A stretch of 62,923 bases of DNA, the filler included, from Candidatus Fermentibacterota bacterium (GTDB taxonomy: Bacteria; JAFGKV01): NCBI GenBank assembly GCA_016928395.1. It is 5 parts of 5 records of this genome, joined end to end, with 100 filler letters (N's around TTAATTAATTAA, not from the genome) between each part and the next. Parts side by side here need not be neighbours in the genome. Positions count along the whole stretch, not along the records: positions 1 to 27,893 come from JAFGKV010000174.1; positions 27,994 to 36,036 come from JAFGKV010000177.1; positions 36,137 to 42,445 come from JAFGKV010000178.1; positions 42,546 to 47,510 come from JAFGKV010000179.1; positions 47,611 to 62,923 come from JAFGKV010000180.1. One strand, given 5' to 3'. Below the pieces are notes generated by a model that worked only from the letters and a program-made list of their open reading frames with translations, was not told the origin of the DNA and did not search any database. Shown here in pieces: positions 3,925-51,778 of this stretch (the stretch's first letter is position 1; every line of letters begins with the position of its first letter). Both the position numbers and the translations under genes were made by a program.

Positions 3925-6900
3925 CTACGGCCCCGTGGGGGTCAGGAAATCAGTTTCACCCACCCGGTTAGATGCAGGGCCCTCATTGCCCGATGCATCC
4001 CGGGCGGTCACCACGTAGACCCAGTTGAGTTCCGGATCTCCGGCCCCGCCCTCATCAGTCCACGGAGGGTTCTGCACCGTGGTGAGCAACGACCAGGGGC
4101 CGGGTGTGAAATGGGGGATGACGCTCCGGTACACACGGTATTCCGTGACACCCACATTGTCCCACGGGGCTGACCAGGTGAGCACGACATCCTCTCCATT
4201 CACTCCACGCATGATGCCTAGATCGACAATGCCCTCGGGGGGCACGCCGTCCGCCCCATCCAAGAGCCATGCCAGGGCCTGCTGAAGGAAGATGAGCGGC
4301 TGACTGGGCGGCGCCTGGCCAGAGGTCAATGCCTCGAATGGGGTGGCCATGAATACGACGCGGTAGGCCGTCTGGCCGGAGGCCGGGTAGCGCAGGGCCG
4401 TAATCTGGGCCGAGGTTCCCACCGTGAGGATGCCTGCGGCCCCGGCGTCGGGCACGATGGCATCGGGATACTCCGACATGCCGGCGGGGAAGTCCGTGGG
4501 CATCACCATCCCGGCGGTAATGGGATCCGCCGGGACTCCCCGCACTTCATTGACCGTGATACTCGTCGTGGAGCTTGCCACGTGCAGGTAGGTGGAAGTG
4601 AACGAACTGGATCCGTACGAGGTAAGGTAGTTCTCTGCCGAGAAGAGCAGCGCACCGCCCCCGTCCAGATAGGTCGCCAAGGTCTGCTGGTCCGTCGGTG
4701 ACATGGAGGAGACGTTCTGGTCACCGGCGGTCCACACGACAACCGGATACAAAGACAGCATAGCCAAAGGCACGGAGCCCTGAGCCGGTACATCCCACCA
4801 GTCGAAGCTGTAACCGGAGGCGTTCATGGCGTCCAACAGCCGGCCCTCGATGGGTTCGTCGTCCGTATCAACCACGAGGACCGTGGGCTGACCGAGAACC
4901 AGGGTGAACGGCAAGGTCGCCTGCCACGGCCCCAAGGCATCGACCTGCACGGAGAACGCCGCTACGGCCCCTTCGGGGCACTCGCCGCCCACGGAGATGA
5001 CAAAGGGCTGGGCATTGGTTTCACTCCCCCCTGGATTCAGGGACGGGAACGGAGCAATCGCAAATCCGACGGTCACATCGGGATGCGTGGATGCAACGGT
5101 GCCCTGCACCGACGATGCCGAACCGGAGCCCGTATTGCGCAGATAGACGTAGAGATCGACTGTCTCACCGGGATCTGCCCGGCCATTGCCGTTTCCTCCC
5201 GCATCGTCCACCGCAACCGAGTCGATCTGAAGCACGGGAGCATGAAGCACCATGGCAAACTGCCGAATCCAGGCGCTGTCTCCGGAAGACAAGGCCAACT
5301 CGAACGGCACGACATGGTTGTCGGCCGCTCCCCCGGCCACGGCCAACCGGTAGGGACCTGTGCTTTGGGCCGTCGCATCCGGCGCCATGGATCCGTACCC
5401 CTGTACGGCATCGGTAATAGCTACCATGCCATCGCCGGACGAAAGCGTGCCTGTGACCGGAGGTGCCTCACTTTGGCCAACATTCCAGAGCCGTATGTCG
5501 AGGGCCACAGAGTCTCCCTGTTCCACAATGCCATTCACCGTGCCGAAGGTATCGACTGCCATGAGGGAGTCTATCACCACATACCAGCCTTCCGCCGGCG
5601 CCAGTTGAACCGTTCCCTGGTAGGGAATCCTGTTATGAGCGCTTACCACCAGGTCAACCGGGCCGGGTATCGTGGGAGGCTCGTCAAAGATGATGTGGGC
5701 AGTGCCGCCGGAAACCAGTGCCCGGCCCAGCAGGTCACCGTCACGACTCATGGCAGCCATTGCACCGTCGGTGTCGACCAACACGGTGAAACTTGTCACG
5801 CCCACTACGGATGCAGCATCGTGGTTGACGACCATGGCCGCGGGTTCTGCGGTGTGGATATCCTGGGTGGGATCGCCGTAGTAGTGAAACATCTCCATTT
5901 CCGTGCGCGTCGTGGTGGGATCCGGAGCCCAGGGATACCCCGCGCCGTTGGTCAGCACGTACTTGTCATACATCCACCACTTGGCGAAGTCCACCACCAC
6001 CCCCTGGCGGTAGGTGGGGCTGCCCCACGGATTCTGGCTGGTTCCTCCGGGATAGGAGGGATCAAACCCGGGCCACATGGCATCGTAGATGCCTTTCACC
6101 AGCTCGTCGTTGTACCCGCTGTAACTGACCCGGGTCGCGCCGACCACCCCGACGGCGCCCCCGGGGGAGAGCCGGAGCAACTCCTCGCAGAAGCTCTCGA
6201 AGGTGCTGCTATTGCTGTCGGTTTCCGAATCAAAGTAGCCGGTGAGACAGTTCAGACTGTACACGACCGGGAGCATTGCGCCGTTGGCGAGCTGCGCGAA
6301 ATGCGACAGGGTGAAGCTGGGGTGGCTCCATCCATCGGTATCGCCATGATCCCGGTGATTCACGATGAATGAGCCCGCGTTAAAGTTGGCGATGACATCG
6401 GCCGTGGAGCCTGGCGGCGTTCCCGCCTCGTAGGCACGGGTTACGTCGAAGCCGAGGGAGATCAGATAGTCGTAGATCATGTTGGACACGGTGACAAAGT
6501 ATCTGCCCGCCTCGTCGTATGCGGCCAGGAACACATGGTTGTTCCACCCGCCTGCCGGGGGGTTCTGCTCATAGCCAAGGATCTTCGCAAACGGCCCGCT
6601 TTGGGTTGCGCTGTCCACCGAGATGCGCCCATGGTGGATATCGGCAAAGTAGTCGTCGCCATCCACGGTGGCATACCATAGATCCGTCCCCGTCAAAGTG
6701 CCGTGATAGGGATGCGTATAGAGGTAGTTCGTGGGCATCAGATCCGCATCACCAACCAGGAGCACAAAACTAGGAGGCGTCTCCCAGGTCTCATACGCAG
6801 TCTGGACATACGCGCGAATACCTTCGGCATCCCAGCCCGCCTGAGTGCGGGTAACCATCACCGTGGGGATACCCGACATGCGGCGCCATTGTACCAAAGG

Positions 6901-7662
6901 CTGCACGGCCTCGGAGAACCCATCGGGCACGATGATGAGCAGTTCACCTTCGCCCTCGCGCACGGCGGGGAGCGGAGAAACGCCGCCCACCTGGTCGTAG
7001 TTCAGTAGCATGCCGGCATACAGAGGCTCGAAGAAACGTGACCTGAGCCGCTGCGGCACGAAAAAGCCAGCGCCGCCGGTGAATCGAACGTCAACCCGAC
7101 ACCGGGTATACGCAACCAGTCGGGATGTCTCGGCATAGAATCGCAGCGGAAACACTCCGACGAGCGCCGTCTGCAGGCCCCGCACAGTGTAGGGTTGGCT
7201 CACGAGGAGCCTCTCGGCGGGAAACCCCTGGCCGCCTCGATAGTGGCCGTTGTCCATAATGAAGGGCACCTGGGCGCCATCGAGATCTGGGACCGGCTCC
7301 TGCGCGGGCCACACACGAAAACCCTCAAGTATCACACTGTCCAGCACGGCGATGCTGGCCGAGACCGCGGCCCCTCGGGGAAGGCCGATGAAACGCCCAA
7401 CATACGGAATTTCCGGCAGCCCCACGTCTGCAGTCCGTCCTGAGGATGGCAGGCGAAGCCGCTGGAACGGCCCGCCTTCGTGCTCTATGTCCTCGACCCA
7501 CATACCGCCAAGACCCACCTCGTATACGCAGCCCGACAGGTCATTGGAGAGCATGGTGATGGCAATCCCTGCCGGCTCCCCCTCGCCGGCGAAAGACACC
7601 CACCGCTCATCTGCCCGTGAGTGAGCTATCAGAAGAAGCAGAATGGCAAAGAATCGCGTCAC
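3925..7662 (-). CDS. Secreted C25 family (gingipain-like) cysteine peptidase with propeptide, Ig-like domains and C-terminal FN3-like domain
   Basis: Signal peptide; C25 propeptide (VGLPEIP); FVLLVGD, catalytic His (NHRDHG) and Cys (SLNCLTG); GDP motif; C-terminal ...SNRVGETDF. Confidence 0.9.
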   Translation of the reverse strand: MTRFFAILLLLIAHSRADERWVSFAGEGEPAGIAITMLSNDLSGCVYEVGLGGMWVEDIEHEGGPFQRLRLPSSGRTADVGLPEIPYVGRFIGLPRGAAVSASIAVLDSVILEGFRVWPAQEPVPDLDGAQVPFIMDNGHYRGGQGFPAERLLVSQPYTVRGLQTALVGVFPLRFYAETSRLVAYTRCRVDVRFTGGAGFFVPQRLRSRFFEPLYAGMLLNYDQVGGVSPLPAVREGEGELLIIVPDGFSEAVQPLVQWRRMSGIPTVMVTRTQAGWDAEGIRAYVQTAYETWETPPSFVLLVGDADLMPTNYLYTHPYHGTLTGTDLWYATVDGDDYFADIHHGRISVDSATQSGPFAKILGYEQNPPAGGWNNHVFLAAYDEAGRYFVTVSNMIYDYLISLGFDVTRAYEAGTPPGSTADVIANFNAGSFIVNHRDHGDTDGWSHPSFTLSHFAQLANGAMLPVVYSLNCLTGYFDSETDSNSSTFESFCEELLRLSPGGAVGVVGATRVSYSGYNDELVKGIYDAMWPGFDPSYPGGTSQNPWGSPTYRQGVVVDFAKWWMYDKYVLTNGAGYPWAPDPTTTRTEMEMFHYYGDPTQDIHTAEPAAMVVNHDAASVVGVTSFTVLVDTDGAMAAMSRDGDLLGRALVSGGTAHIIFDEPPTIPGPVDLVVSAHNRIPYQGTVQLAPAEGWYVVIDSLMAVDTFGTVNGIVEQGDSVALDIRLWNVGQSEAPPVTGTLSSGDGMVAITDAVQGYGSMAPDATAQSTGPYRLAVAGGAADNHVVPFELALSSGDSAWIRQFAMVLHAPVLQIDSVAVDDAGGNGNGRADPGETVDLYVYLRNTGSGSASSVQGTVASTHPDVTVGFAIAPFPSLNPGGSETNAQPFVISVGGECPEGAVAAFSVQVDALGPWQATLPFTLVLGQPTVLVVDTDDEPIEGRLLDAMNASGYSFDWWDVPAQGSVPLAMLSLYPVVVWTAGDQNVSSMSPTDQQTLATYLDGGGALLFSAENYLTSYGSSSFTSTYLHVASSTTSITVNEVRGVPADPITAGMVMPTDFPAGMSEYPDAIVPDAGAAGILTVGTSAQITALRYPASGQTAYRVVFMATPFEALTSGQAPPSQPLIFLQQALAWLLDGADGVPPEGIVDLGIMRGVNGEDVVLTWSAPWDNVGVTEYRVYRSVIPHFTPGPWSLLTTVQNPPWTDEGGAGDPELNWVYVVTARDASGNEGPASNRVGETDFLTPTGP

Positions 7663-13003: not shown

Positions 13004-15340
13004 CTAGGACCCGTCGTCCATCTCGTAGTCGTGCTCACCGACAGTAGCCGACGGATCGGATTCATTCAGTGCCGCGTCATGGGCCGTGACGCGGAAGTAA
13101 TAGTTCACCGCAGGATCGCCGAGACTGCCGGCAACGGAGTATGACGTTCCGGCCGTCGTGCCCAATACTTCCGAACCGCTCACCTCGAAGTAGGCAGCCT
13201 GGCTCCTGTATACGCTGTAGCCCGTCACCCCCACATTGTCGGTCGAGGGCGACCAGGTCAGCATGCCATCGGAACCTAGAGCGGCATTGCCGGGCGCCGT
13301 CGGCGGCTCGGTATCAACGCCGGCCGGGCCGACACCCTCACCCACGGCCACCAGCGAGAACCGCTGCAGGTCATCTTGCAGACTGTCGTAGTAGTGCACC
13401 GTGATGGCATAGGTCCCGGCCTCGGGGGTGCGCAGCCACACCACCTCCGTGGTATTCAGGCGGTCGGCACTGCCCCCGGTGGCGCTCTGTCCGCCTGTGA
13501 ACACATTGCCGAGATAGGTTGCCCCTCCAGGCGCCTGCACCGTCAAGTCTATATCATTCTTGATCTTGGGGCCGCTGCCGGCCAAGGCCCCAGGCTTGTC
13601 CGACCAGCAGAGCACGATTTTCAGCTCACCACCGCAGGCGGCAGTAATCTGCCAGTCCTGAGTGGCGCCCTCTGCGATGCCGCTGGTATCCTGGTAGACC
13701 CACATGGTCCGGGAACGACCGGCGAAGTAGAGGGCATCATCCAGCACGACAAAACCCCATCCCGTACGATCATTGGGTGGTGCGAAGTCAATGGCGTCCC
13801 GAGTCGAGGCGACCATGGTTCCCTTGAGAAGCGAATTGAGAGGAAGGAAACCATCCGACGGATTGGCGCTCCCGCTGGGATAGTAGCCGTTCATGTAGTA
13901 CGAGCGCACCAAGGCTGCGCTGCCGGCCGCGATAGGCGATGACATGCTCGTGCCGGTGCCCATGGCATACCCGGTGTCCGAGTTGTTGGCCGCCGAGCTG
14001 ATGTTTTCCCCCGGAGTGAGGAAGGTCGGCGCGTGCCGGCCGTCCGCCGTGGGTCCCCGTGCTGAAAAATAGGCCAGCAGATTGCCGTTGGTGCTGTTCC
14101 TGCTGGCGCCGACGCAGAGCACTGACTTGGCGCAGGCAGGCGATCCCACATAGAAGTTGGGCGGATTATTGCCCGCTGCAACGGATGCCAGTTCGAATGG
14201 GTAGTACCACATGTAGGAGTCACAACTGGCGTCATTCGTGCCGTACGAGCCTTCGCTGTCATTGCCCCAGCTGCAGTTGTGGATCTTCGCCCCGTGGAGG
14301 CTGGCGCTGTAGAACATGGAGTACGGCGTGCCGCAATAGAGGCCGCCCGCGGTTCCCACATCCGTGACAACCAGCTTCGCCGTCTTGGCCATGCCATCCT
14401 TAATGGTCCAGGTGTCGTCGTCTCCGGCGACGCTGCACGCCACGTGAGTTCCATGTCCGTACGGGGGATAGGGATCATACTCATCGCCGAAGGACCCGTT
14501 GCCCATGGGGGTGCCGTCAAGATAGGCCACGATCTTGCGGTGAGTCGGGTAGACGCCAAAATCGGTGATGGGCACGGCGGGGTCAACAAACGCGCAGTGG
14601 GTGGTCCGCACGCCTGAATCGTTCACCTCAATAATCTGATCCGTGCCGGTCAGCCCGGCGTCCCAGATCGGCCGCGAGTTGGCCGCGAAGCTCTGGGTTA
14701 CCCACTGGGCATTCTGGTTGAAGAGATGAATGGGGAGATTCTCTTCGATCCACTGCACTTCGCGTCGAGCAGCGACCGAAGCCAGGCCGGTCGCGGGAAA
14801 CGTGACCCGGATCAACCACTGATCGGGGCCGAGACGCATGGCGGCCGGGGGAAAACCCTGTGAGTCCAGCCACTGCGCCAAGGGGGAGGCATCCTCGCCG
14901 GGATGCAGCACAATGTTCAGCTCCATGGATCCATCGCGGCCATGGAGGTTCGGAGGCAGCTTGAACCACGGATGCCACAGGTCAAACCACACGACGGAGG
15001 AAGACTCCAGGGCACGAAGCGATGTCAGGGGAAGTCTAATAATGTACGCGTTGTGAGGCAGGTAATCTATGAGCTCCGCGCCCATGTCCCGCAGAGCCTG
15101 ACGCTCGGCACGTGAGGCGGGGGGGAAAAGCAAAACGATGAAGTAGTCATATTCAGCCGCGGCTACGCCGCGCCACGCCTCGGGCACGGACACAGGCACG
15201 CGGGTGGGCTCCAGAGTCCCGCTGTGAAGCAGAATGGTCGATCCCAGCACGGGATCCGAACGCACATCGGAAGCACCGGCCGGGGCAACCGCGAATCCGA
15301 GCAGCGCGACAACAAGCCCAAGCACCACGAATCTCGACAT
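13004..15340 (-). CDS. Secreted S8 subtilisin-like serine peptidase (KP-43-like) with C-terminal FN3-like domain
   Basis: Signal peptide; triad VNDSG, GHGTHVA, GTSMSSP; FSARGPTADGR; NDIDL.V; C-terminal ...SATVGEHDY. Confidence 0.92.
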   Translation of the reverse strand: MSRFVVLGLVVALLGFAVAPAGASDVRSDPVLGSTILLHSGTLEPTRVPVSVPEAWRGVAAAEYDYFIVLLFPPASRAERQALRDMGAELIDYLPHNAYIIRLPLTSLRALESSSVVWFDLWHPWFKLPPNLHGRDGSMELNIVLHPGEDASPLAQWLDSQGFPPAAMRLGPDQWLIRVTFPATGLASVAARREVQWIEENLPIHLFNQNAQWVTQSFAANSRPIWDAGLTGTDQIIEVNDSGVRTTHCAFVDPAVPITDFGVYPTHRKIVAYLDGTPMGNGSFGDEYDPYPPYGHGTHVACSVAGDDDTWTIKDGMAKTAKLVVTDVGTAGGLYCGTPYSMFYSASLHGAKIHNCSWGNDSEGSYGTNDASCDSYMWYYPFELASVAAGNNPPNFYVGSPACAKSVLCVGASRNSTNGNLLAYFSARGPTADGRHAPTFLTPGENISSAANNSDTGYAMGTGTSMSSPIAAGSAALVRSYYMNGYYPSGSANPSDGFLPLNSLLKGTMVASTRDAIDFAPPNDRTGWGFVVLDDALYFAGRSRTMWVYQDTSGIAEGATQDWQITAACGGELKIVLCWSDKPGALAGSGPKIKNDIDLTVQAPGGATYLGNVFTGGQSATGGSADRLNTTEVVWLRTPEAGTYAITVHYYDSLQDDLQRFSLVAVGEGVGPAGVDTEPPTAPGNAALGSDGMLTWSPSTDNVGVTGYSVYRSQAAYFEVSGSEVLGTTAGTSYSVAGSLGDPAVNYYFRVTAHDAALNESDPSATVGEHDYEMDDGS

Positions 15341-15385: not shown

Positions 15386-16762
15386 TCAGAGAGGGTAAGC
15401 CGGGCGGCCTCTCACAAGGGGAAGCCCGACAGAATCATCGCCGACAAGACGCCCTCTCTCTGCCACAAGACTCCCCCGAAGATACACTCGCTCGGGAGGA
15501 GAAGCCACCATGCGCCCTTCATAGGGGCTCCACCCTGCCTTTGACACCAGCCTTTGTGCATGTATGGGCATGCGACCCTGAGGGTCAAGGATAACGATGT
15601 CTGCATCGCTGCCAACACCCAGGCTGCCCTTTTGGGGGTACACACCCAAAAGCCGTGCAGGATTGGCCGACATGAGCCGTACCAGATCGGTGATACCGAT
15701 CCTTCCCCCGTGCACTCCCAGCCCGGTCATGACCCGAAGGCTCACCTCCACTCCCGGGATTCCTCCGGGGATACGCGAAAAATCCCCTGCCCACGCATCC
15801 TTGGACGACAGGGAAAATCCGCAGCTATCCGTCGCCACCACGTGCAAATCGCCGGCCGCAACGGCCTGCCACAGGGCGTCAGCGTGAAGCGCCGACCGCA
15901 GTGGAGGAGCGGTGGCATACCTGTGCCCCCCATCCACACCCAGCATCTCCTCAGTCAGCACCAAGTAATGAGGGCAGGTCTCTCCGCTGGCCCAAGCACC
16001 CGAGGCTCGGGCATCGGCCACGTGCCGAATTGAGCCCCCGCATGACAGATGCACAAGATGAATGCGCCCACCGGCGTGGCGAGTGAACGCCAAGACACGG
16101 TAGACCGCCTCCTCTTCAGCTTCCACCGGATGGGATCGCGCCACGGCCAGAGCGCCCTCTCCCCGGCGGCGTGTGGCATCCGATAGAACGCGTACCATTG
16201 CGTCGTTCTCCGCGTGCGCCAAGATGACGAACTCACCCCCGGCCGACGCCTCGATGACCCGGAACAGGGTCTCATCGTCCAGGTAGAGACCGCGCGATCT
16301 GTAGGTGGTGAAGACCTTCACTGAACGGATCTGGCCCGCCAGTGAGAGCACCCTGAGTTCCTCTTCCACTGCCCCGTCCAGCCGAGTGATCATGAGATGC
16401 ACTGCCCAGTCGCATGCGGCGGCCCGCCACGTCTCCCCATGCCGCGCCAGGCTCTCTGACAGGGAGCCTCTCACCTCGGCGAAATCGGCCACGGTAGTCA
16501 CGCCGCCCACCAAAGCCGAGCGCGAACCGGAGGCGACATCGTCTGCCGTTGCGACGCCCTGCGCCTTCAAGAAGAGGTGCACGTGGGGATCAACCACACC
16601 GGGAAGCACCCATAACCCCTCGCACGGGACGATCTCGGCCCCGGTGGAAGAGACGGTGCCGCGGGCGGCAACCGTGCCCGCCTCCACGAGCATGTCTTCA
16701 ACGGTCACACCACCCTCATCGATGATCGATCCCCCCCTGAATACCGTTCGCCGCGGCATCAT
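15386..16762 (-). CDS. Dihydropyrimidinase/hydantoinase-like amidohydrolase
   Basis: LPGVVDPHVH, GGVTTV, HAEN, HLS, GETCPHYL, PPLR, ATDS, SANPA, KGSL.VGSDAD. Confidence 0.88.
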   Translation of the reverse strand: MMPRRTVFRGGSIIDEGGVTVEDMLVEAGTVAARGTVSSTGAEIVPCEGLWVLPGVVDPHVHLFLKAQGVATADDVASGSRSALVGGVTTVADFAEVRGSLSESLARHGETWRAAACDWAVHLMITRLDGAVEEELRVLSLAGQIRSVKVFTTYRSRGLYLDDETLFRVIEASAGGEFVILAHAENDAMVRVLSDATRRRGEGALAVARSHPVEAEEEAVYRVLAFTRHAGGRIHLVHLSCGGSIRHVADARASGAWASGETCPHYLVLTEEMLGVDGGHRYATAPPLRSALHADALWQAVAAGDLHVVATDSCGFSLSSKDAWAGDFSRIPGGIPGVEVSLRVMTGLGVHGGRIGITDLVRLMSANPARLLGVYPQKGSLGVGSDADIVILDPQGRMPIHAQRLVSKAGWSPYEGRMVASPPERVYLRGSLVAERGRLVGDDSVGLPLVRGRPAYPL

Positions 16763-18564: not shown

Positions 18565-18565
18565 G

Positions 18566-27709: not shown

Positions 27710-27893
27710 CTACGGCTGCGCGAAGTCAAACTCGCCGGCGCGGTTGGAGGAGCACAGCTCAGTGCCCGAGCCGTCCACCGCCATCACCAGGTAGACCCAG
27801 TTATAATCCGGATCGCCCATGCCCGCGGCGCTGCTCCAGCTCGTCGTCCCCGAGGGAAGCACCGCCACCCGGTGCGCATACCCAGGCCCCATC
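27710..27893 (-). CDS. 3' fragment of a probably secreted protein carrying the conserved C-terminal GExDF domain (truncated by contig end)
   Basis: GDPDYNWVYLVMAVDGSGTELCSSNRAGEFDF matches the C-termini of the C25, S8 and VWA proteins. Confidence 0.75.
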
Positions 27894-31865: not shown

Positions 31866-32608
31866 AGATCGGAATCATAGGCTATGGGAAGATGGGTCAT
31901 GAGATTGAGCGCCTTGCGGCGGATGCCGGGCATGAGGTCGTCTGGCGGCTGGACCAGGCGGACAACCCCTCTGCTGCCGCTCTAGACGGTACGCGCCTGG
32001 GTTTGGTAGACCTCTGTGTCGAGTTCACCGTCCCCGCTGCTGCCGCGGCCAATGTTGGGAGGATTCTGGCTCAACGGGGCAAGGTCGTGTGCGGGACCAC
32101 CGGATGGTTCGACTGCCTCGAGGCCGTCCGTGGCGAGGCCAGGGAGGGCTCGGGTTTGGTGTATGGCAGCAACTTCTCCCTGGGAGCCCATCTCTTCTCT
32201 GTCGTGGTACGTGAGGCGGCTCAGAGGTTTGCGCCCTTTCCTGAGTATGATGCAGCCATCCACGAGGTTCATCATGCCGCGAAAGCGGATCACCCTTCGG
32301 GCACGGCCAGGAACCTGGCCACCAGCCTACTGGCCGCCCTCCCGGGCAAGACGAACGCGTTGGCCGATCTGGGAGAAGGCCCTGTGGGACCCGACCGGCT
32401 GCACATTTCATCGACGCGCGTCGGTCATGTCCCGGGAGTTCATACCGTATTCTTCGATGGCCCCTTTGACACCATTGAGCTACGGCATTCCGCACGGAGC
32501 AGGGCCGGGTTCGCCCGGGGTGCGCTGCTGGCTGCTGAATGGCTTCTGGATCGGGCGGGTGTTTTCACCTTTGAGCACGTCATACAGTCTCTAGTGGAGG
32601 GAAGATGA
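31862..32608 (+). CDS. dapB: 4-hydroxy-tetrahydrodipicolinate reductase
   Basis: IGYGKMG, GTTGW, NFSLG, E.HH..K.D.PSGTA, FA.GA. Confidence 0.95.
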   Translation: MKIGIIGYGKMGHEIERLAADAGHEVVWRLDQADNPSAAALDGTRLGLVDLCVEFTVPAAAAANVGRILAQRGKVVCGTTGWFDCLEAVRGEAREGSGLVYGSNFSLGAHLFSVVVREAAQRFAPFPEYDAAIHEVHHAAKADHPSGTARNLATSLLAALPGKTNALADLGEGPVGPDRLHISSTRVGHVPGVHTVFFDGPFDTIELRHSARSRAGFARGALLAAEWLLDRAGVFTFEHVIQSLVEGR

Positions 32609-36036: not shown

Positions 36037-36136
36037 NNNNNNNNNNNNNNNNNNNNNNNNNNNNNNNNNNNNNNNNNNNNTTAATTAATTAANNNNNNNN
36101 NNNNNNNNNNNNNNNNNNNNNNNNNNNNNNNNNNNN
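36037..36136. other. Artificial contig spacer
   Basis: N run with TTAATTAATTAA. Confidence 0.99.
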
Positions 36137-37700: not shown

Positions 37701-40700
37701 TTATCGCATGACCACGAGCCGCTTCGACTCGACAAACGACTCGCTTACGATCCGGCACACGTACACACCCCTGCCCACCGTACGCCCTTGCGCATCGGTG
37801 CCATCCCACTCGGCCTCATGCGTCCCTACGGGCATCTCAGTCTCCACCACGGTCCGCACGAGACGCCCGGAGAGGTCGTAGATCTGCACCTTGACCCTCG
37901 CACCGAGGCTCATCCCATACTCGATCCGGAAGCTGCCTTCCGCCGGGTTCGGGAACACGCCGCGAAGTCCCGCCACCGTCTCTTCTGCCGGCCGCGGAGG
38001 CACCGGCGACCCTCCCCAGGCCGAACAGTCCTCGCTCGTGAATATCAAATACCAGAAGCTCCCACATCGCGAGGCCTGACCGCCCAGCCCGTCCCAGCAG
38101 TTGCCAAGCGCGCTCAGGCCCGGCGGGTTGGCGTATCTGCTCGTGTACTCGATGTCGCATTCGTTGTCGGCAAAGAGGTTCAGTCCATGATCACCGCTGG
38201 TGCCCGCGTCTACCCTGCCCCCGGCCCTGCACGAGATGCCGATGTTCGGCCCAAGCGGACCGCCTGCGAAGTCGTGGATGTTGCAGTGTCGGACGACAGG
38301 CTGGGAGTTGCTGCCCAATACTCGAATGCCCGCATTCAGAACCGGGGTCTGGTCCACAATGAACAGGTCCTGCAGCTCCAGGTCGCCCGCTCCCGTGTTC
38401 CTGTTGTAGTAGATGGCGCAGTCGGCATTGCCACTGAAGTTGCTGTAGGCCAGGATGGATGTCCCTCCTGACGGCGTCTCAGCCTTCAATCCGACGTCAT
38501 TGTCCACGAATGTGAGATCTCGGAATCCATCGCTGTTGCTGATCCAACTCTGGTTCATGTACATGCCGACGACATTGCCGTCGAAGCTGTTGCCCCGGAA
38601 CTCGGTCAGCGTCACCCCGTCGAGATACACGCCGTAGTTACACTCGCGGAAGGTGTTGTCCTCGATCACATGGGAGCCCGAGTGACTGACCAGCACACCT
38701 TTGTCGGCGTACTCGATGATGCAGTGCTCAAGATCCAGGACACTGCTCGGTCCGGCCGTGTAGATGCGAGACCATGCCCCAGGCGTATGGGCGCTTGCCG
38801 TGAAAGTGACCGGAAGGGACCCATTACCTCGCGCAACCAACCCGCCCGATACGCCAATCGATGATCCTCCGCCGAGTACCACGGTCACCCCCGGTTGGAT
38901 TATCAGGTCTGCTCCGCTTGCCACAGTCAGGACTGTCCCCTGCGGTATCAGCACAGTCTGGCCGGAGAACCAGATGGTGGTCTCGGTGATCGTTCCACTG
39001 ACCGGTAAGGTCGCCGACACCGCCGTCGCCGTTATCGCGTAGCTCCGCATGGGATACGAGCAGTGCACATAGCCGCTTCCCGAGGGACGCCCCCACCGAA
39101 CTTCGCTCTCCATGGCGTTGACGACGACATCCACCAGGTCGATGCTGCTCCCGAACCCAGGGACATGATGATAGAGGCGCTCCGAGTATGCAGGGAACGA
39201 CGACTGCGCCATGTCGATGTGCCACACATTGGTCGGGTTGTTCTCGCCGCCCGAGTAGCCGACCACGTTGGCCTGGATCAGGATGTTGTCGCTGCTGCCC
39301 CAGTTGTCCTCGTCGTGAACGTCAAAGGACATGCTCAGGATCCAATCGCCGGGAGGAACGGCCGAGACCCAGCGCGTATAGTCGGCAGCATAGATCTCGA
39401 TCCCGATCGGTTCGCTCCCGTAGCCAGGTCCATCGCGTCGAAACTCGTAGATACTCCCCGGTTGACTGACGACCGTCGTATCCGGGGTCCACGCACCGGA
39501 CATGGAGTCGGTCGCCGCGCTTCCGCATACGAAGTCGGGAAGATCGGGAAGATTATTGTAGGTGTTGTCTTCGTTGTCGCGCAGCCAGCCAAGGCCGGCC
39601 TGTCCCGGTTCCCGAATGCGGACATTGTCGTTCGGATACTCATACTTCGGATCGAATCCGGTTCCGTCCAGGAGATTGGCCAGAGTCCAGGCGTTGAATA
39701 TCTGCCTGAAGAGGTCGCCCCCGGTCGTTCCCCACGCCCAGTGGTCCTCGGCGGCCTTCAGAAACCCGTAGAAGCCGCGAACCGGACTCCCGTCCTCCTC
39801 GGCGCGGACAGCCTTGTACAGGAGATCATCATCGATAGCCTGCGGCTCTGCGCCAGGGAAATGGTCGAATATGTACCTGCTCCAGAGATAGAAGACCCAG
39901 TACTTGGTCGTTGAGTTCTTCGTCTTGCACGTCTGGTACTCGTGCTGCTGGTCCCAGACACCAAGAGGATACGTTCCAGCCTCAACTCGGGCGATCGAGT
40001 TATTGGCGACGAGATCGTAGCGATACCATGTCGCATCCTCGTGATCGGCCCCTACATTCGTGCGCGACCGTCCGGCTGCAACCACCGCTCCCTCAGCGAA
40101 CAACTCTTCGAAGAAGCCGTGGTCAAACTCGTTGTAGTCGAAATGACTCCTGATTGTGTGCTGCAACTCGTGACAGAACGTCCTCGGAGCCCTGTTGCCA
40201 ATCGGCCAGTCGTCGGGAATCGCCTTGTAGAGAGGGGGGACCGGAGAAGGGTACATGATGTTGAGGGTGACGTCATTGCCTCCAGCCGTAGAATACAGAT
40301 GATCCCTGAGTTTGATGTCAACGTCGGTAGCCCCCGAGGGGTACCGGAAGTTGCTGTTGTAAGGATCGTAGCTCGGGTCACCGTACACCGGCCGGATAGG
40401 CCCGGATGCGAAGTAGTTCCAGATCTCCCGGATGTCGTTGCCGTCCGGAAACCAGATCTGCTCGATGAACGTGCGGAGGTGTGCATCATCCAGCAGTGTC
40501 TCGTCATACATCCAGATGAGGCTGTCTTCGACAAACAGATTGATGTCAGCATCGAGTTCTGCGCGTATCGTATCAGCCCAGATCCCTTCGAAAAGATCAT
40601 ACACGTCAATCTCAATCCAGCCGTGACGCGTCTCCTCGTCCTCGGGGAATCCGCACTCGACATAGTCATCGGCAACGGCATTCCCGTGGAGCAGCACTGA

Positions 40701-40733
40701 AATGATGCTCAGAGTGAATGCGAGGCTTCTCAT
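37701..40733 (-). CDS. Large secreted protein: HExxH metallopeptidase-like domain, right-handed beta-helix and FlgD-Ig/T9SS-like C-terminal domain
   Basis: Signal peptide; FCHELQH...FFEELFAE; parallel beta-helix repeats (IEDNTF, FRGNSF); FPNP...IYDLSGRLVR....WDG.D..G..V..GVY...KRLVVMR. Confidence 0.8.
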   Translation of the reverse strand: MRSLAFTLSIISVLLHGNAVADDYVECGFPEDEETRHGWIEIDVYDLFEGIWADTIRAELDADINLFVEDSLIWMYDETLLDDAHLRTFIEQIWFPDGNDIREIWNYFASGPIRPVYGDPSYDPYNSNFRYPSGATDVDIKLRDHLYSTAGGNDVTLNIMYPSPVPPLYKAIPDDWPIGNRAPRTFCHELQHTIRSHFDYNEFDHGFFEELFAEGAVVAAGRSRTNVGADHEDATWYRYDLVANNSIARVEAGTYPLGVWDQQHEYQTCKTKNSTTKYWVFYLWSRYIFDHFPGAEPQAIDDDLLYKAVRAEEDGSPVRGFYGFLKAAEDHWAWGTTGGDLFRQIFNAWTLANLLDGTGFDPKYEYPNDNVRIREPGQAGLGWLRDNEDNTYNNLPDLPDFVCGSAATDSMSGAWTPDTTVVSQPGSIYEFRRDGPGYGSEPIGIEIYAADYTRWVSAVPPGDWILSMSFDVHDEDNWGSSDNILIQANVVGYSGGENNPTNVWHIDMAQSSFPAYSERLYHHVPGFGSSIDLVDVVVNAMESEVRWGRPSGSGYVHCSYPMRSYAITATAVSATLPVSGTITETTIWFSGQTVLIPQGTVLTVASGADLIIQPGVTVVLGGGSSIGVSGGLVARGNGSLPVTFTASAHTPGAWSRIYTAGPSSVLDLEHCIIEYADKGVLVSHSGSHVIEDNTFRECNYGVYLDGVTLTEFRGNSFDGNVVGMYMNQSWISNSDGFRDLTFVDNDVGLKAETPSGGTSILAYSNFSGNADCAIYYNRNTGAGDLELQDLFIVDQTPVLNAGIRVLGSNSQPVVRHCNIHDFAGGPLGPNIGISCRAGGRVDAGTSGDHGLNLFADNECDIEYTSRYANPPGLSALGNCWDGLGGQASRCGSFWYLIFTSEDCSAWGGSPVPPRPAEETVAGLRGVFPNPAEGSFRIEYGMSLGARVKVQIYDLSGRLVRTVVETEMPVGTHEAEWDGTDAQGRTVGRGVYVCRIVSESFVESKRLVVMR

Positions 40734-40786
40734 CCTTGACCTCCTTGCTTGAGCCATGATGGATACCCTCTGAATCAGGCAACCTG

Positions 40787-42376
40787 TCACTTGAGGACCA
40801 CTATTCGCCTCTCACTGACGCAACCCCCTGTGCTAAGGTGAACCACGTATGTTCCTGGACAGACCAATTCGCCCGTGTCGTCTCTACAGTCCCAAACGAG
40901 CGCAACCTCAGTCGGTGCGTCGGATCTCCCCGAAGATAGCCGACACTCAATCTGCCTAACCCGACGACCAAGCAGGTCGAAGACAACGGTCTGATCACCA
41001 GGGCACGGTCGAGTAATCGTTGTCTTGCACCCCAGAACAACCGGGTTTGGGGCCCACCAGACATTGGGCTCGGCGGAGAAATGTTGTGAAGTAATCCCTT
41101 CCACGTGGTTGACTGAACGGCTCGTCAACACTTCGCGATCCGTGCCATCCCATCCCTCCCATACCACCCAGGCTTGACCGTCATTTGCAACCGCAAGATC
41201 GGAGTACTCATCCCTGAACCCATCGGCCGTGCTGATACGTTGTTCGGGGCTCCACCGCCCGCCGGTCCTGTGGCTGAAGTAGATTTCCTGGTCAAAGTCC
41301 CCGTATCCCCATTCCCGTCCGACCCACGAAACCCATGGCGACCCGATCGGCGCGACGCAGATATGTGCATCCGCATCGCCTGCATTCTGTCCCGCCCAGG
41401 TCGAATCCGGCGCAGTAATCCTTTCCCGTTCAGACCAATCCCCTTCTGAACAGCTGGATGAGTAGATGTCTCCTCCTTCTGACCATGCAACCCACACCTC
41501 GCCATCCGGACCGATGTCAAGCTGTGTTGCGACCTCCGCCCTCGGAAACGTATCCACAGGCGCCCATCCGTCCTCCTCCCAGTGCGTGTACAGGGAGACC
41601 GATTCCCATGTCGGAGAGCCCAATGAGCGAACCCACATTACCCATACCTCCCCGTTCTCTCCAGTAGCCAGATCCCTTCCTCCCACGTCTCCTGGGCCAG
41701 GCTCCTCGGAGAACGGCTGGGCATCGCTCCACGCGCCGGCTAGCCATCTGCTGTAGAAGAGCTCCCTACTGCCTTGATCAGGCGGCCACCACGACCAGAT
41801 GAGCCAAGGAGTTCCCCACGAATCGACCTCAAGCACCGGTGACCCGGGGCCCGGCTCATCCTCGAGCTCGGGGAATACTAGCTCTTCCTGCTCCCACCCA
41901 TCGCCAGCCCATCTCGCGTAGTACAGTCTGGTGCCCCCGCTCACAGCCGTGGTCCACACCACCCATACGTTGCCATCTGGCCCCACAGCTACGTCGGGGT
42001 AGACGTCGTCTGCGGAGTTGTCGGAGTTCACCCGCACGGGTAGACTCCACGCTTCAGCGTTCCAGGTTGAGGCGAGCACCTCACGATCATATCCGTCGAA
42101 CCCCGTCCATACCACCCAGACCTTGCCATCAGGACCTGAAGCAATCTGGGGCAACCGATCATCATACACATCATCTAGACTGATCTGAGCCTCAGGTGTC
42201 CATTCGATCTGGGCATGGAGGGGAAGAGCATGGAAGAGAAGGGCGAGAATGGGGAGAACGGCGACGAATGGCGGCGATGGGAAACGCTTGCGCAATGCCA
42301 TTGCCAGAGTCCGTTGCAGTTTCGTCGATTCGACCGGCTTCATGTCACGCGCCCCCGCGTTGAATAAACGGGTCAT
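40787..42376 (-). CDS. Secreted Trp-rich beta-propeller-like protein with FlgD-Ig/T9SS-like C-terminal domain
   Basis: Repeats GPDG.VWVVW / W.G.DG.DRE; C-terminal APNP...FDLLGRRVR...WD.RD..G..V.PG.Y...RRIVVLK; start may be 42301. Confidence 0.78.
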   Translation of the reverse strand: MTRLFNAGARDMKPVESTKLQRTLAMALRKRFPSPPFVAVLPILALLFHALPLHAQIEWTPEAQISLDDVYDDRLPQIASGPDGKVWVVWTGFDGYDREVLASTWNAEAWSLPVRVNSDNSADDVYPDVAVGPDGNVWVVWTTAVSGGTRLYYARWAGDGWEQEELVFPELEDEPGPGSPVLEVDSWGTPWLIWSWWPPDQGSRELFYSRWLAGAWSDAQPFSEEPGPGDVGGRDLATGENGEVWVMWVRSLGSPTWESVSLYTHWEEDGWAPVDTFPRAEVATQLDIGPDGEVWVAWSEGGDIYSSSCSEGDWSERERITAPDSTWAGQNAGDADAHICVAPIGSPWVSWVGREWGYGDFDQEIYFSHRTGGRWSPEQRISTADGFRDEYSDLAVANDGQAWVVWEGWDGTDREVLTSRSVNHVEGITSQHFSAEPNVWWAPNPVVLGCKTTITRPCPGDQTVVFDLLGRRVRQIECRLSSGRSDAPTEVALVWDCRDDTGELVCPGTYVVHLSTGGCVSERRIVVLK

Positions 42377-42445: not shown

Positions 42446-42545
42446 NNNNNNNNNNNNNNNNNNNNNNNNNNNNNNNNNNNNNNNNNNNNTTAATTAATTA
42501 ANNNNNNNNNNNNNNNNNNNNNNNNNNNNNNNNNNNNNNNNNNNN
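42446..42545. other. Artificial contig spacer
   Basis: N run with TTAATTAATTAA. Confidence 0.99.
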
Positions 42546-47510: not shown

Positions 47511-47610
47511 NNNNNNNNNNNNNNNNNNNNNNNNNNNNNNNNNNNNNNNNNNNNTTAATTAATTAANNNNNNNNNNNNNNNNNNNNNNNNNNNNNNNNNN
47601 NNNNNNNNNN
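47511..47610. other. Artificial contig spacer
   Basis: N run with TTAATTAATTAA. Confidence 0.99.
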
Positions 47611-47611
47611 C

Positions 47612-50600
47612 GCGGAGAACTTCGGGTACAAGTACAAGTCGAACCAAGGGGACACGGCTCGGGTGATCAATGAGGTGGTGTGGAACGGGGAGATCGACAC
47701 GCTGTATGTGCAGCGGGGCCCCTTGCCGGAAGAGCCATGGTCAGAGTATCCCAGGCGCGGCACAGACTGCGACTCCAACTACATCGCGGATGAAGGGGTG
47801 TACCTGGCGCGGCTGGAGGTGGATGAGTTTGCGGATCCGGGGTTTGGGGCGGATGACACGCTGAAGCTGGAATCCACGAAGGCGATCGTGGTAGACCGGT
47901 CTGCCCCGTACGTGAAGAAGCTGGAGCTGTGGAACATCTGGCCGGGGGGAGGCGGGCCGGATACGACGATCATCCGGAAGGCGAAGTGGATCGACCATCC
48001 TACGGCTCCTGCGCTCCGTCAACTGGAGATCGAGACGCAGAACCCGATGAGTCTCGACACACTGGAAGTCGCCATCACCTTCGATCAGACTATGTGTCGC
48101 GACTCGCTGCAGATCAAGTATCGGCTGCAGAAGGAGGGCGGGCCTGCGTGGGCCATGAACATCGTGCGGTGGGACAGCATCGTGTACCCTGACGACGCGG
48201 TGGTGGCGCGGAGTGCGGTGGTGTGGACGGGCACGCTGCGGAGTGTGTATGCGGGGGAGTACGTGGTGGAGGTGCGAGGGTATGACACGGCCTTGAATAG
48301 GCTGGATGCGGATCCCTCGACGAAGGCGCAGCGAGGTGTCGGAGGGGCCTGGGAAGGCTACGAAGAGGGAATGAGAGATACCCCGCCATGGACAGACTGC
48401 AACCATAGCTTCGTGATCGAGCGCTGGCGCGACGTGTTGCTGCACATGGACGTGAGCGCGAGCGTGACGAATCCGGAGACCGGGGGGTGGGCATCGTCGG
48501 CCTACCACATGGCGGACAGTCTGCTGGCGCGGATAGAGCAGGATCATATCGACAGCGGGCGAGCTGACATGTGGCGGGCGGGGGTGACGCGGTACTTCGG
48601 GCACACGGATGGGAACTCGTGGGCGGTTCAGCTCTTGGCTGATGTGAGCCCGAACATCGAGTCGTCGCGGATCGCGCTTCAGCTTCTGTGGGTGGGGACG
48701 CCCTGCAGCAGCCAGGGGGAGCCGTTGGACAGCGTGGTGGCATACCTGGAGGATCCGGGGAATCACAGCATGCCGCGGCAGGTGGTGCTGTTCACGGACG
48801 GGGAGATGAACCGAGGGGTGTCGCGGGCGGAGCAAGAGGAGCTGTGGGTGAGGGCAGCGACGGACAGCACGTTCGGGTGCGGGACATTTTTGTATGCGAT
48901 CATGCCGGAAGCGAAGGCGCATCTGTCTGAGGGGATGTGCGCGGCCGTGGTGAGGAGCGGGGGCAGTTACCTGACGATCCCCGAGGGTGACATGATTGCG
49001 GGCTATCCCGGAGGGGTGTTGTACGAGGACCTCGTGCACAACAGCCGGATCTACGGGGCGCAGGGCGAGGGCGTGGTCACGCGCTCGACGCACTGGTTCA
49101 GGGTGGATGGGTTACGCGGGAGCCTGTTTCTCCTGGGGTCATGGGCCCCGTGGGGCTTGCAGTTGGCCCAGGGAGAGGTGGTCTGTGGAGGGCTGCCGAG
49201 GTGTGGGGAGTGCGGAGGCGAGGGGGTGACGCAGGATGCGGAAGCCCCGGTTTCAAAGGAGGAAGCCCCCGCGGTCGAGGCTGCGGGCATGTCGACCAGA
49301 GACGCGGAGGTGGGAGGGGGAGGAGAGGCAGATGATGAGGAGGAGGCGAGGGAAGACGGCATGCCGCGGCTGAGCATGACCCTGTACGATGCGGAGGGGG
49401 CGAGTGTGCCGCCGACGGGCACGATAGGGGGCAGCCTGGCATGGTGGGAGCTGAGCCCGACAGACGCGGACACGGGGCTGTGGCGCGTGGAGGTGAGCGG
49501 GGGGTCGGGTCCGTATGACCTGCGGGTGAGCGAGCGGGGCGGCGTGCGGATCGAGCTGGCGGGGAAGCGGCTGGCGGGGGTGAACATGGGATGCGACGTC
49601 AAGGTGTGCGTCGAGAGCGAGTGGCCGGTGCAGAGCCCGAGTTGGAGCCTGGTGGATGGCGAAGGCGCGACAGTAGCCGGCCTGAGCTTGTTCGATGACG
49701 GGCTGCACGGCGACGGCCTGTCGGGAGACGGGGTCTGGGGGGGAGCCCTGGCGGGGGTAGCCGAACGAGGGCTGTACCGGGTGCGGCTGCGGGGCGAGGT
49801 GAATGGGAGACCGATCGAGCGGGTGACGGGCGAGGGGTTGTGGGTGACGGAGCCTGAGTTCGAGTTCCTGACGCCGGCAGGGATCGACACGGTGGAGGGG
49901 TACTACCTGATCACCTGGGCGGACAGCAGCGAGTTCGCGGCCCAGATAGGGCTGTACTACGACACGGACAGCCTGGGAGCGGACGGGGTGCTGATCGAGG
50001 GGGGCATCGAGGAAGATGCGGACGGCACGGGGGATGAGTACCTGTGGAACACGCTGTCGGTGCCCGAGGGGAGGTACTGGGTATATGCGGTGATAGTGGA
50101 TATGGTAGGGCCTGGGCGGGTCGTGTACAGCCCCGGGAATCTCGTGCTGAGGCGGGAGTATCCGGCGGGATGGCCAGCAGAGGTGGGAGGGGTGATCCGG
50201 GCGCCGGTGACGGTGGCTGATCTTGATGGGGACGGGACGGCGGAAGTGGTAGTAGGCGCCCTTGACAGTCTCTTGTACGCGTTCCAGCACGATGGCACGC
50301 ATCGACCCGGGTTTCCGGTACCGTGTCAAGGAGCGATCACCGCCGGGGTTGCGGTGGGCGATGTGGACGGAGATGGGTTGAAGGAGATCATGGTAGCGAC
50401 CGGGGACTATCTGGGGCCTGCATGGGTGTGGGTGCTGGACGATGGGGGGAATGTGAAGACTGGATGGCCGGTGATGACGACGCAAGGCACGAAGGGCACG
50501 CCGCTCGTGGTGAACCTGGTGGGGCCCGCGAACAGTCCCCCGGAGATCGTCGTGGCGGGGTACGATAGCCTCGTGAATGCCTGGACCGGGGATGGGAGCC

Positions 50601-51778
50601 CGGTGCCTGGCTGGCCGGTGCGGCTGAGCGGGATGATCCAGAACAGCTCGCCAGTGGGCGGCGATATCGACTGGGACGGGCAGGACGAGGTCGTGGTGAC
50701 GCGGACTCAGGGAGAGCCGATGACGCAGGGAGCGATCGTGGCGATAGAGACAGACGGCACGATCAAGTGGGAGAAGGCGATGCCGAGCTATGTGTGGAGT
50801 ACGCCGGTTTTGTGGGATGTGGACAGAGATCGGAAGCCGGAGGTGATCGTGGTGACCTCAGGAGCTACAGGGCGGCTGTATGCGCTGAACGGGGAAAACG
50901 GGAGCGATGCGCCGGGATGGAGCGGGGGAAAGGACATCGGGCAAGGGTCATGGGCATCGCCTGCGGTGGGGTATCTGAATCAGACGGACGAGCCGAGGAT
51001 CGTGGTGGTGAACGGGCAGGGCAGAGTGCGAGCATACAGCAGTACAGGGGATAGTCTGGCGAATTGGGGGGACGACGTGACGAACTACCTGGTGAGGACC
51101 GCGCCGGTGATTGCGGACATCGATGGCGACATGATGACCGAGATCCTGCTGGCCGCGAGGTATCGGCTGTACGTGCTGGCGGGGGCTACGGGGGACACGA
51201 TCAGCCTGTACACCAAGCCGCTGGAGACCGACACCTACTCCACGGTCGGTGTCGCAGACCTGGACGGGGATGGCGATCTGGAGATAGTGGCGGCGGACGG
51301 AGCGGTGATTCGGTGCTGGGACATCGCAGGGAGCGTGTGGGCTGCGGGGCAGGAGTGGCCGCAGTTCAAGCGGGACGAGGGTAAGACGGGCCGATATCGG
51401 GAGAGCGCAAGTCCCCAGGCGCCGGCAGTGGAAACCATCGAGGTGGTGGGGCCGGACAGCCTGCGCATACGGTGGGGAACAGTGCACAACGATGTGTACG
51501 GGCGTCCGGAGTGGCTGCGGCGCTACCGTGTGTATCGGGGAAGCGCACCGTACCAGGCGACCTGGGGCACGCAGGTAGGGCTGGTGAATGCGCCGGACAC
51601 AACGCTTGTGGAGCTGCCGGGCACGGTGAATGATCCGACTCTGAGCAGCTACTACCGGGTTCGAGCTGAGGACCTGTACGGGAACCAGTCAGCGCTTTCT
51701 GACGAGACCGTGGGGGAGTTCGAGCGGAGCACCGGGGCGGCGAAGGGGAAGGAGAAGGTGGGAGCGACCCGGCGATAG
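47612..51778 (+). CDS. Large surface protein (5' truncated): Ig-like, VWA, choice-of-anchor-X-like motif, FG-GAP propeller and C-terminal FN3-like domain
   Basis: MIDAS DVSAS and LFTDG; LFDDGLHGDG.SGDGVWG; repeated (A/G)D(L/V/I)DGDG..E(I/V)VV with PGWPV; C-terminal ...SDETVGEFE. Confidence 0.85.
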   Translation, partial: AENFGYKYKSNQGDTARVINEVVWNGEIDTLYVQRGPLPEEPWSEYPRRGTDCDSNYIADEGVYLARLEVDEFADPGFGADDTLKLESTKAIVVDRSAPYVKKLELWNIWPGGGGPDTTIIRKAKWIDHPTAPALRQLEIETQNPMSLDTLEVAITFDQTMCRDSLQIKYRLQKEGGPAWAMNIVRWDSIVYPDDAVVARSAVVWTGTLRSVYAGEYVVEVRGYDTALNRLDADPSTKAQRGVGGAWEGYEEGMRDTPPWTDCNHSFVIERWRDVLLHMDVSASVTNPETGGWASSAYHMADSLLARIEQDHIDSGRADMWRAGVTRYFGHTDGNSWAVQLLADVSPNIESSRIALQLLWVGTPCSSQGEPLDSVVAYLEDPGNHSMPRQVVLFTDGEMNRGVSRAEQEELWVRAATDSTFGCGTFLYAIMPEAKAHLSEGMCAAVVRSGGSYLTIPEGDMIAGYPGGVLYEDLVHNSRIYGAQGEGVVTRSTHWFRVDGLRGSLFLLGSWAPWGLQLAQGEVVCGGLPRCGECGGEGVTQDAEAPVSKEEAPAVEAAGMSTRDAEVGGGGEADDEEEAREDGMPRLSMTLYDAEGASVPPTGTIGGSLAWWELSPTDADTGLWRVEVSGGSGPYDLRVSERGGVRIELAGKRLAGVNMGCDVKVCVESEWPVQSPSWSLVDGEGATVAGLSLFDDGLHGDGLSGDGVWGGALAGVAERGLYRVRLRGEVNGRPIERVTGEGLWVTEPEFEFLTPAGIDTVEGYYLITWADSSEFAAQIGLYYDTDSLGADGVLIEGGIEEDADGTGDEYLWNTLSVPEGRYWVYAVIVDMVGPGRVVYSPGNLVLRREYPAGWPAEVGGVIRAPVTVADLDGDGTAEVVVGALDSLLYAFQHDGTHRPGFPVPCQGAITAGVAVGDVDGDGLKEIMVATGDYLGPAWVWVLDDGGNVKTGWPVMTTQGTKGTPLVVNLVGPANSPPEIVVAGYDSLVNAWTGDGSPVPGWPVRLSGMIQNSSPVGGDIDWDGQDEVVVTRTQGEPMTQGAIVAIETDGTIKWEKAMPSYVWSTPVLWDVDRDRKPEVIVVTSGATGRLYALNGENGSDAPGWSGGKDIGQGSWASPAVGYLNQTDEPRIVVVNGQGRVRAYSSTGDSLANWGDDVTNYLVRTAPVIADIDGDMMTEILLAARYRLYVLAGATGDTISLYTKPLETDTYSTVGVADLDGDGDLEIVAADGAVIRCWDIAGSVWAAGQEWPQFKRDEGKTGRYRESASPQAPAVETIEVVGPDSLRIRWGTVHNDVYGRPEWLRRYRVYRGSAPYQATWGTQVGLVNAPDTTLVELPGTVNDPTLSSYYRVRAEDLYGNQSALSDETVGEFERSTGAAKGKEKVGATRR

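Follow-up and report, generated by a model that had tools for sequence, protein, structure and literature searches.

A single-copy C-terminal Fn3 subfamily on exported proteins of a Candidatus Fermentibacterota bacterium: a candidate docking tag

Why do unrelated exported proteins of one bacterium share the same last hundred residues, and what might such an ending be good for? The question is raised by a 62,923-nucleotide stretch of DNA from a Candidatus Fermentibacterota bacterium (assembly GCA_016928395.1), referred to here as the window, in which a C25 peptidase, an S8 subtilase, an FG-GAP propeller protein and a gene fragment all end in one domain of about 100 residues, which we call the tag. 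The similarity of these four tails is far beyond chance, and the tag is a distinct, uncatalogued subfamily of bacterial Fn3 domains, of which a literature search, judged by its search results, returned no description. As to its role, we tentatively favour, at somewhat less than even chances, a single-copy C-terminal Fn3 subfamily on Sec-exported proteins that would mediate non-covalent docking or retention, either on the surface of the cell or on a shared scaffold, in parallel to and independently of the type IX secretion (T9SS) tail.

The tag in the window and in the genome

The window consists of five contigs joined end to end, with N runs (ttaattaattaa spacer) at 27894-27993, 36037-36136, 42446-42545 and 47511-47610, and gene neighbourhoods across these joins are not real. 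Translation places the gene of the C25 (gingipain-like) peptidase at 3925-7662 on the minus strand, with Pfam matches to Propeptide_C25, Peptidase_C25 and Peptidase_C25_C; its Fn3-type tag (3928..4260, minus strand; profile match to residues 1143-1252 of the frame) ends in SNRVGETDF followed by the tail LTPTGP, and Pfam has no match on the tag. The S8 subtilase (13004-15340, minus strand, likewise from translation; Peptidase_S8 and PPC in Pfam) carries its tag, by profile match, at 13007..13330 on the same strand, with the end SATVGEHDY and the tail EMDDGS, and across the whole tag it is 76% identical to a homologue titled 'Candidatus Eisenbacteria'. The third gene is cut by a contig end, leaving 60 codons of its 3' end (27710..27892, minus strand, from the list of open reading frames and the N run) with the ending SNRAGEFDF and the tail AQP; 87 exact bases of this fragment overlap the 3' end of a 1284-residue C25-like frame running off contig C293, and a second identical continuation lies on contig C273. 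The FG-GAP propeller protein (47663-51778, plus strand, from translation, its 5' end cut by the contig start) contains FG-GAP repeats according to Pfam and, at residues 674-709, the NCBIfam 'choice-of-anchor X' domain (36.3 bits, cut-off 25); its tag, found by profile match at 51383..51775 on the plus strand, ends in ETVGEFE and a 16-residue basic tail closing with RR. The VWA domain that a first-pass annotation of this DNA had assigned to the same protein is not found at E<=0.1. That annotation's alignment of the four C-termini held up, both in its positions and in substance, with 27-42% identity to the first tail and the invariant columns D-P, V.A.D, S and G-E. On the window tails Pfam reports nothing above threshold, and NCBIfam no sorting family.

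Searching all stop-to-stop frames of the 4.79-Mb genome (G000) with a profile of the four tails retrieved 70 frames at E<1e-3, and a search with A2, a refined profile built from 63 tails, gave 114 domains spread over 102 frames; by the latter profile, 88 frames end in the same domain of ~100 residues. The many further copies expected of a sorting tag thus exist, here and in two phylum mates, G001 and G002 (the latter a family-level relative, 98% complete): the three genomes contain 64, 77 and 44 copies at E<=1e-18 and 89, 97 and 61 at 1e-8, compared to 0-10 weak matches in each of 38 unrelated genomes. The proposal of one terminal domain per protein was equally sound for this genome. At E<1e-5, one copy is present in 94 frames and two in a single frame, and the domain lies within 35 residues of the frame end in 59/59 cases at E<=1e-20, 73/74 at 1e-10, 88/96 at 1e-5 and 91/106 at 1e-3, while the internal A2 matches are weak, stop ahead of the last strand and resemble ordinary Fn3. 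Among the 20 best-scoring tags of G002, 19 lie at most 35 residues from the stop and the 20th at most 40. On contig C15 (3447-5804), a tag copy is apparently split over two overlapping frames (profile positions 31-84 and 89-138), which suggests a frameshift or an assembly error.

The conserved columns of the tag end read S-N-R-V-G-E-F-D-F, followed by x-x-D-I-P. Beyond the last strand, 55 of 76 tails are short (2-7 residues; 40 of them end in Pro) and 21 are long and hydrophilic (10-26 residues; 14 of them end in Arg). Such conserved extreme ends could be read as a covalent processing or attachment signal, with FDFxxD-I-P-COOH or the long Arg-ended tail being cut or transferred by a peptidase, for example of family C25 or M14, in the manner of PorU or the sortases, and the genome is indeed rich in C25 and M14 peptidases, several of which are tagged themselves. 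Against this, the tag is a folded domain rather than a peptide; no tail (2-26 residues, hydrophilic or Pro-ended) contains the hydrophobic stretch or helix of a tripartite signal of the LPXTG, PEP-CTERM or PGF-CTERM type; no conserved neighbouring enzyme was found; and in the fused proteins described below, the last strand leads straight into another domain. We therefore regard covalent processing as very improbable.

The carriers fit a docking tag for exported proteins. Pfam families (1e-5) were detected in 34 of 60 further tagged frames of the genome and in none of the other 26, and comprise C25 (7), S8 (3), M14 (2), C10, trypsin, GH18, GHL15, alpha-amylase, phospholipase-D-like, FG-GAP (7), LTD, beta-helix, BNR, CBM96, SH3 and others; the families on these 34 carriers are typical of exoproteins. 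The passengers, which include C25, S8 and M14 peptidases, glycosidases, FG-GAP propellers and small proteins, are as unrelated as first supposed. The predicted pairing with signal peptides is likewise seen as an enrichment: by a crude heuristic, applied to tagged frames with a complete 5' end and to random frames of at least 300 residues, signal-peptide-like N-termini occur in 54/81 tagged and 58/75 T9SS-tailed frames, versus 180/581 random frames. The small tagged proteins, of 190-260 residues (loci L018, L019, L021, L025, L036, L044, L045 and L047), start with a signal peptide and a Gly-rich segment of ~55 residues (AQY.V.PSV.AGGG...GQSSPVG...HGFWHA) and close with the Fn3 tag plus a long tail whose last residues are ER; the Gly-rich segment matches no family in Pfam or NCBIfam.

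Fold of the tag and relation to ordinary Fn3 domains

The first-pass annotation had called the core of the tag FN3-like, and structure prediction bears this out. Modelled by AlphaFold2 with A2 as the alignment, the C-terminal 125 residues of the C25 protein form a seven-strand sandwich (pLDDT 94.6) with the Fn3 strand order A-B-E / C'-C-F-G. In a Foldseek search of the PDB with this model, all listed top-50 matches are Fn3 domains, the best being 1k85, the Fn3 domain of Bacillus circulans chitinase A1 (TM 0.83, 32% identity), and the same tag domain inside a fused protein reaches Z 10-11 to Fn3 chains in VIA-align. Matches in the ESM Atlas belong to Fn3-like or unnamed clusters only, the 14 NCBIfam families that match the 63 tags are Fn3-containing enzymes or noise, and 28 of 120 matches listed by a word-indexed protein search end in the tag. 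By the Pfam fn3 model (PF00041), the tag stays outside the family: the S8 tail, the sole scorer among three window proteins, gives the best score with 18.5 bits, under the gathering threshold of 25 bits, and no fn3 match at 1e-5 was seen on the tag among the 60 other carriers. The S8 match stops at model position 81/84, ahead of the VGEFDF motif, which corresponds to strand G and lies past the end of the model.

Compared to ordinary Fn3, the tag has an insertion of ~9 residues after YRVYR, between strands C and C', which we call the PYF loop (xxAYFxxxG), and another at GDPxxN in the E-F loop. The latter had been noted at first as a non-generic 'GDP..N' insertion; it is present as such, but comprises just 2 residues and is the smaller of the two. 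The terminal [VA]GEx[DE], also taken for a departure from generic Fn3, is in fact absent from the ordinary Fn3 domains compared, but constitutes the last beta-strand of the Fn3 fold itself. By the up-down topology of Fn3, one pole, opposite the passenger, would carry the C-C' loop and the E-F loop together with the C-terminus. The PYF insertion, the GDPxxN loop and the conserved last strand would hence share this pole, farthest from the passenger, and a recognition surface located there would explain why the tag must be last.

Several observations weigh against a docking role, beginning with this assignment of a common pole, which follows textbook topology and not coordinates. The tag core is 43-48% identical to DNVGV-type bacterial Fn3 domains of glycosidases, which are often spacers, and a search of 1.84 billion representative proteins with the A2 profile yielded 117,773 matches, led by giant tandem Fn3 arrays that match in the core only; the tag family therefore descends from ordinary Fn3. 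It could have remained an ordinary Fn3 spacer or substrate-binding module of secreted hydrolases that settled at the C-terminus and was passed around when domains were shuffled, with no addressing, docking or anchoring role. The plain bacterial Fn3 character of its fold and sequence and the recovery of generic arrays by its profile agree with such a spacer, as do the chitinase Fn3 as nearest solved structure, the many hydrolases among the carriers, the non-terminal tags of other phyla and a search for an obligate partner that found none. However, generic Fn3 domains are internal and arranged in tandem, while the tag is single and terminal in all 59 strong cases; its last strand and tail are conserved across two phyla; it also ends non-enzymes and proteins of 190-260 residues with little else in them; paralogous passengers carry either it or the T9SS tail; and it reaches 44-97 copies per genome in a few clades only. 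We consider a mere spacer rather unlikely, and even if that reading were right, annotation would profit from a new family model that keeps these tails from being taken for generic Fn3 or overlooked altogether.

Type IX secretion and distribution across genomes

A docking tag on exported proteins invites comparison with the T9SS, all the more as both endings occur in this one cell. The classical type A tail of the T9SS (TIGR04183) is matched 91 times in the genome, in ~65 cases above the cut-off, and the genome encodes SprA (463 bits) together with PorU-like and PorV-like genes, all under their cut-offs. The PorV model has 11 matches at ~9 loci (C97, C110, C55, C151, C240, C135, C159, C293), the best with 124 bits versus a cut-off of 250, which are many for one genome. 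Within the window, the type A tail is exemplified by a beta-helix protein (37701..40790, minus strand; Beta_helix, NosD, FlgD_ig and, at residues 945-1027, Por_Secre_tail in Pfam), which has no Fn3 tag. Not one frame is shared between the 91 type-A-tailed and the 88 tagged ones, and for 28 of 77 tagged passengers there is a type-A-tailed paralogue (E<=1e-10), in several cases over nearly the full length; the two tails are therefore alternatives at the same position.

The tag itself is not a T9SS type A tail. Among 63 tags, none matches the NCBIfam T9SS model TIGR04183, the YLP-box models NF050076 and NF053834 or any other sorting model at E<=1, so that in NCBIfam they belong to none of the already named sorting families. 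The type B model, TIGR04131, also matches 0/63 tags and nothing else in the genome, but control genomes gave no match either. Dockerin_1 (PF00404) is found on no tagged protein, and the genome has few dockerin matches elsewhere. One could still suppose that in this phylum the tag serves the T9SS as another class of signal and is recognised, like the type A and B tails, by the type IX machinery, perhaps via a PorV-like barrel. The presence of SprA and of PorU-like and PorV-like genes would suit this idea, as would the tag's nature as a C-terminal beta-sandwich about as large as a T9SS tail, and its occurrence on passenger families that also bear type A tails, the two being mutually exclusive. 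We find it improbable in view of the failure of both T9SS tail models on the tags, of fold matches that are all Fn3, and of a KSB1 protein (see below) in which the tag precedes a further tail that by eye resembles type A, so that the tag is not the signal there. Moreover, five tag-bearing Chloroflexota genomes with 9-38 tags each have no type A tails (0/5), and the four of them tested no SprA (0/4), by the same search that finds both in the tag's own genome.

These Chloroflexota also show that the tag is not confined to one lineage, as had been thought at first: the same domain ends exoenzymes in several of their clades. A scan for NRVGEFDF-encoding DNA, with one genome per species, produced at least 80 listed loci, among which ~41 are true tags with the ending ...SNRVGEFDFxLxPGx, nearly all from Chloroflexota (Anaerolineae, Caldilineales, Ardenticatenaceae, Promineifilaceae); among the matches listed, ~14 represent a cupredoxin-like motif of Burkholderiales that has nothing to do with the tag, and those left over are chance hits. 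A GEHDF pattern gave 27 chance hits out of 29. Of 20 Chloroflexota genes fetched, 19 terminate 0-5 residues past the last strand, and their passengers include an amylase, GHL15, C25 (2), S8 (2), M12B (2), a PETase-like esterase, a beta-helix protein, an LTD-nuclease, a cytochrome-like protein and propellers. The expected phylogenetic restriction takes the form of a patchy occurrence, with the tag in 14/28 genomes of one Chloroflexota order and in 1/150 further genomes drawn evenly from across the phylum, with up to 31 candidates scored in each.

The companion module and known systems

Sequence patterns offer one candidate receptor for the tag, which, as we tentatively propose, would tether exoenzymes as well as adhesin-like proteins to the cell surface or to a shared scaffold, alongside the T9SS tail and independently of the T9SS. 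Past the tag of four Chloroflexota loci we found a repeat of ~90 residues with the motifs I-x-x-P-L-D and V-G-D-V-P (alignment A3), which we term the companion module and which matches no Pfam family. A scan with NRVGEFDY returned 46 loci with 25 true tags; 18 of these are directly followed by modules, 4 are terminal, 1 has a 50-residue tail and 2 lead into Pro/Thr linkers. The 18 fusions come from Ignavibacteria-type genomes (6), Zixibacteria (4), KSB1 (1), the 'FCB group' (1), unnamed organisms (3) and Chloroflexota (3). Five FCB-type genomes contain exactly one tag and one module pair each, fused to one another in proteins whose complete frames span 1911-2923 residues; four of these proteins end a few residues past the second module, and that of KSB1 runs on into the type-A-like tail mentioned above. 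The claim that the tag is always last is accordingly true for the strongest matches of the present genome, but does not extend to Ignavibacteria, Zixibacteria, KSB1 and some Chloroflexota, where two companion modules follow.

The module also occurs apart from the tag, in a protein of 220-260 residues in which a linker connects a signal or anchor sequence to two modules and which ends in ...W-P. This stand-alone companion protein is present in G000 and G001, in G041, which belongs to a Chloroflexota order, in G043, in four more genomes of the order of G041, and in the Chloroflexia genome G223. Its only copy in G000 is a secreted two-module protein at C146:1-576 (minus strand, L220) that is cut by the contig end; the counterpart in G001 is L276. 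In the order of G041, the stand-alone protein accompanies 6/14 tag-positive and 0/14 tag-negative genomes (Fisher p=0.016, the related genomes not being independent). We infer that the companion module is the best receptor candidate for the tag and one possible dock, and the stand-alone protein of this genome suggests itself as that dock: fused behind the tag in other phyla, the candidate receptor would here be a separate secreted protein.

In three Chloroflexia proteins, a membrane helix, a cohesin, the tag and two modules follow each other in this order. The cohesin call rests on 22-25 bits in Pfam and on a VIA Z of 17 to solved cohesins. A 464-residue fused model (pLDDT 91.5, pTM 0.82), whose VIA matches are its cohesin and Fn3 parts, has a confidence of at least 95 across the tag-module junction. 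We rejected the cohesin as a general receptor, since PF00963 is absent from G000, G002 and G043. A further Chloroflexia protein from G223, of 898 residues and multihaem-cytochrome-like (L279:3138-5831, plus strand), ends with 'FDYDIKPG' and two companion modules; ahead of these, no Fn3 domain is recognisable in it.

Fused and free forms of the pair can be combined into a more specific, and in our view rather doubtful, scenario of a split docking system. The ancestral state would be a unit of an Fn3 domain and two modules at the C-terminus of a giant surface protein, of which each genome had a single one, as Ignavibacteria, Zixibacteria and KSB1 still do. In the present phylum and some Anaerolineae this unit would have split, with its Fn3 half copied onto 10-100 exoenzymes that dock in trans, be it to the free two-module protein or to another receptor. 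The outcome might be a cellulosome-like display of proteases and glycosidases, assembled from different parts and workable with or without an outer membrane.

A number of findings speak against such a dock, or against docking altogether. In G002, with its 44-61 tags and a completeness of 98%, no companion protein was found even by profile search, nor was one found in G044 or in 8 of the 14 tag-positive genomes of the order of G041. Where it exists, one candidate receptor gene per genome would have to serve up to ~90 tagged proteins. Five Chloroflexota loci (L113, L115, L123, L160 and L231) run on past the tag, as do the 18 loci in FCB phyla and Chloroflexota, and the genes adjoining tagged genes in the window are unrelated housekeeping genes.

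With housekeeping genes next to the window's tags, a conserved gene neighbour was rejected as the tag's partner. The only recurrent neighbour family of tag genes in the genome, itself without a tag, is fibre-like: 12 of its 45 members are neighbours of a tag gene and share its strand, in most cases lying just upstream, against a background of 163/3909 genes. In the 45 frames, Gly-rich GVYG repeats come after an N-terminal domain with a weak resemblance (22-30 bits, cut-off 60) to NCBIfam 'Bdello_MAT_N'; examples are C157:17883-20537, C102:12697-15082 and C235:449-4066, among others (loci L214-L219, L019 and L036). Elsewhere in the window, a 606-residue protein (16759-18579, minus strand) combines a response-regulator receiver domain with a DnaA-type ATPase domain and adjoins a histidine kinase (18566-19732), and an ordinary lysine/diaminopimelate pathway gene run (28649-34343, plus strand) comprises an M20 peptidase, aspartate-semialdehyde dehydrogenase, an amino-acid kinase family gene that is probably aspartokinase, DapB, DapA and a tetrahydrodipicolinate succinyltransferase-like gene.

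The tag is currently left unnamed by annotation pipelines. Should it address or dock proteins, it would mark a large share of the secreted degradative enzymes in two little-studied groups, a small Fermentibacteria/Eisenbacteria-like phylum and several Anaerolineae clades, and surface-displayed enzymes could be predicted from metagenomes by an easy rule of sequence. One cell would then contain T9SS tails side by side with a second tail that does not depend on the T9SS, and the tag with its companion would present a testable example of two domains that some phyla have fused and others have separate.

How, then, does the tag compare to systems already known? Bacterial glycoside hydrolase Fn3 domains share its fold and, at 43-48% identity, its core (DNVGV...Y.VYR...Y.V.A.D.AGN.S), but they are internal or in tandem and have neither the PYF loop insertion nor the GDPxxN loop, the VGEFDF last strand or the conserved tail. 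The T9SS type A domain (TIGR04183 / PF18962, with FlgD_ig-like variants) is, like the tag, a strictly terminal beta-sandwich of ~80-100 residues that occurs once per protein, and a genome may have scores of peptidases, glycosidases and adhesins that combine it with a signal peptide; here the passengers of the two are even paralogous. Its models, however, fail on the tag, whose fold is Fn3 and which is found in Chloroflexota without a T9SS, and nothing points to cleavage or lipid attachment of the tag. The YLP-box of Chloroflexota is also a putative tag at the extreme C-terminus of exported proteins in the same clades, but is a peptide of 8-10 residues with the tail [FY][LM]P[LV][IV]x[RK]-end, in contrast to a domain with tails of the type xxD[IV]P, xLxPG or long, hydrophilic ...R. 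The proposed role resembles that of the dockerin/cohesin system, in which a single-copy, mostly C-terminal module on dozens of unrelated secreted enzymes binds a separate multi-module receptor, and in which fused and split forms both occur. The parts would nevertheless be different ones: a dockerin is a calcium-binding EF-hand pair, built from a duplicated loop-helix motif, the tag is an Fn3 sandwich, and its candidate receptor would be a different, as yet unnamed module instead of a cohesin.

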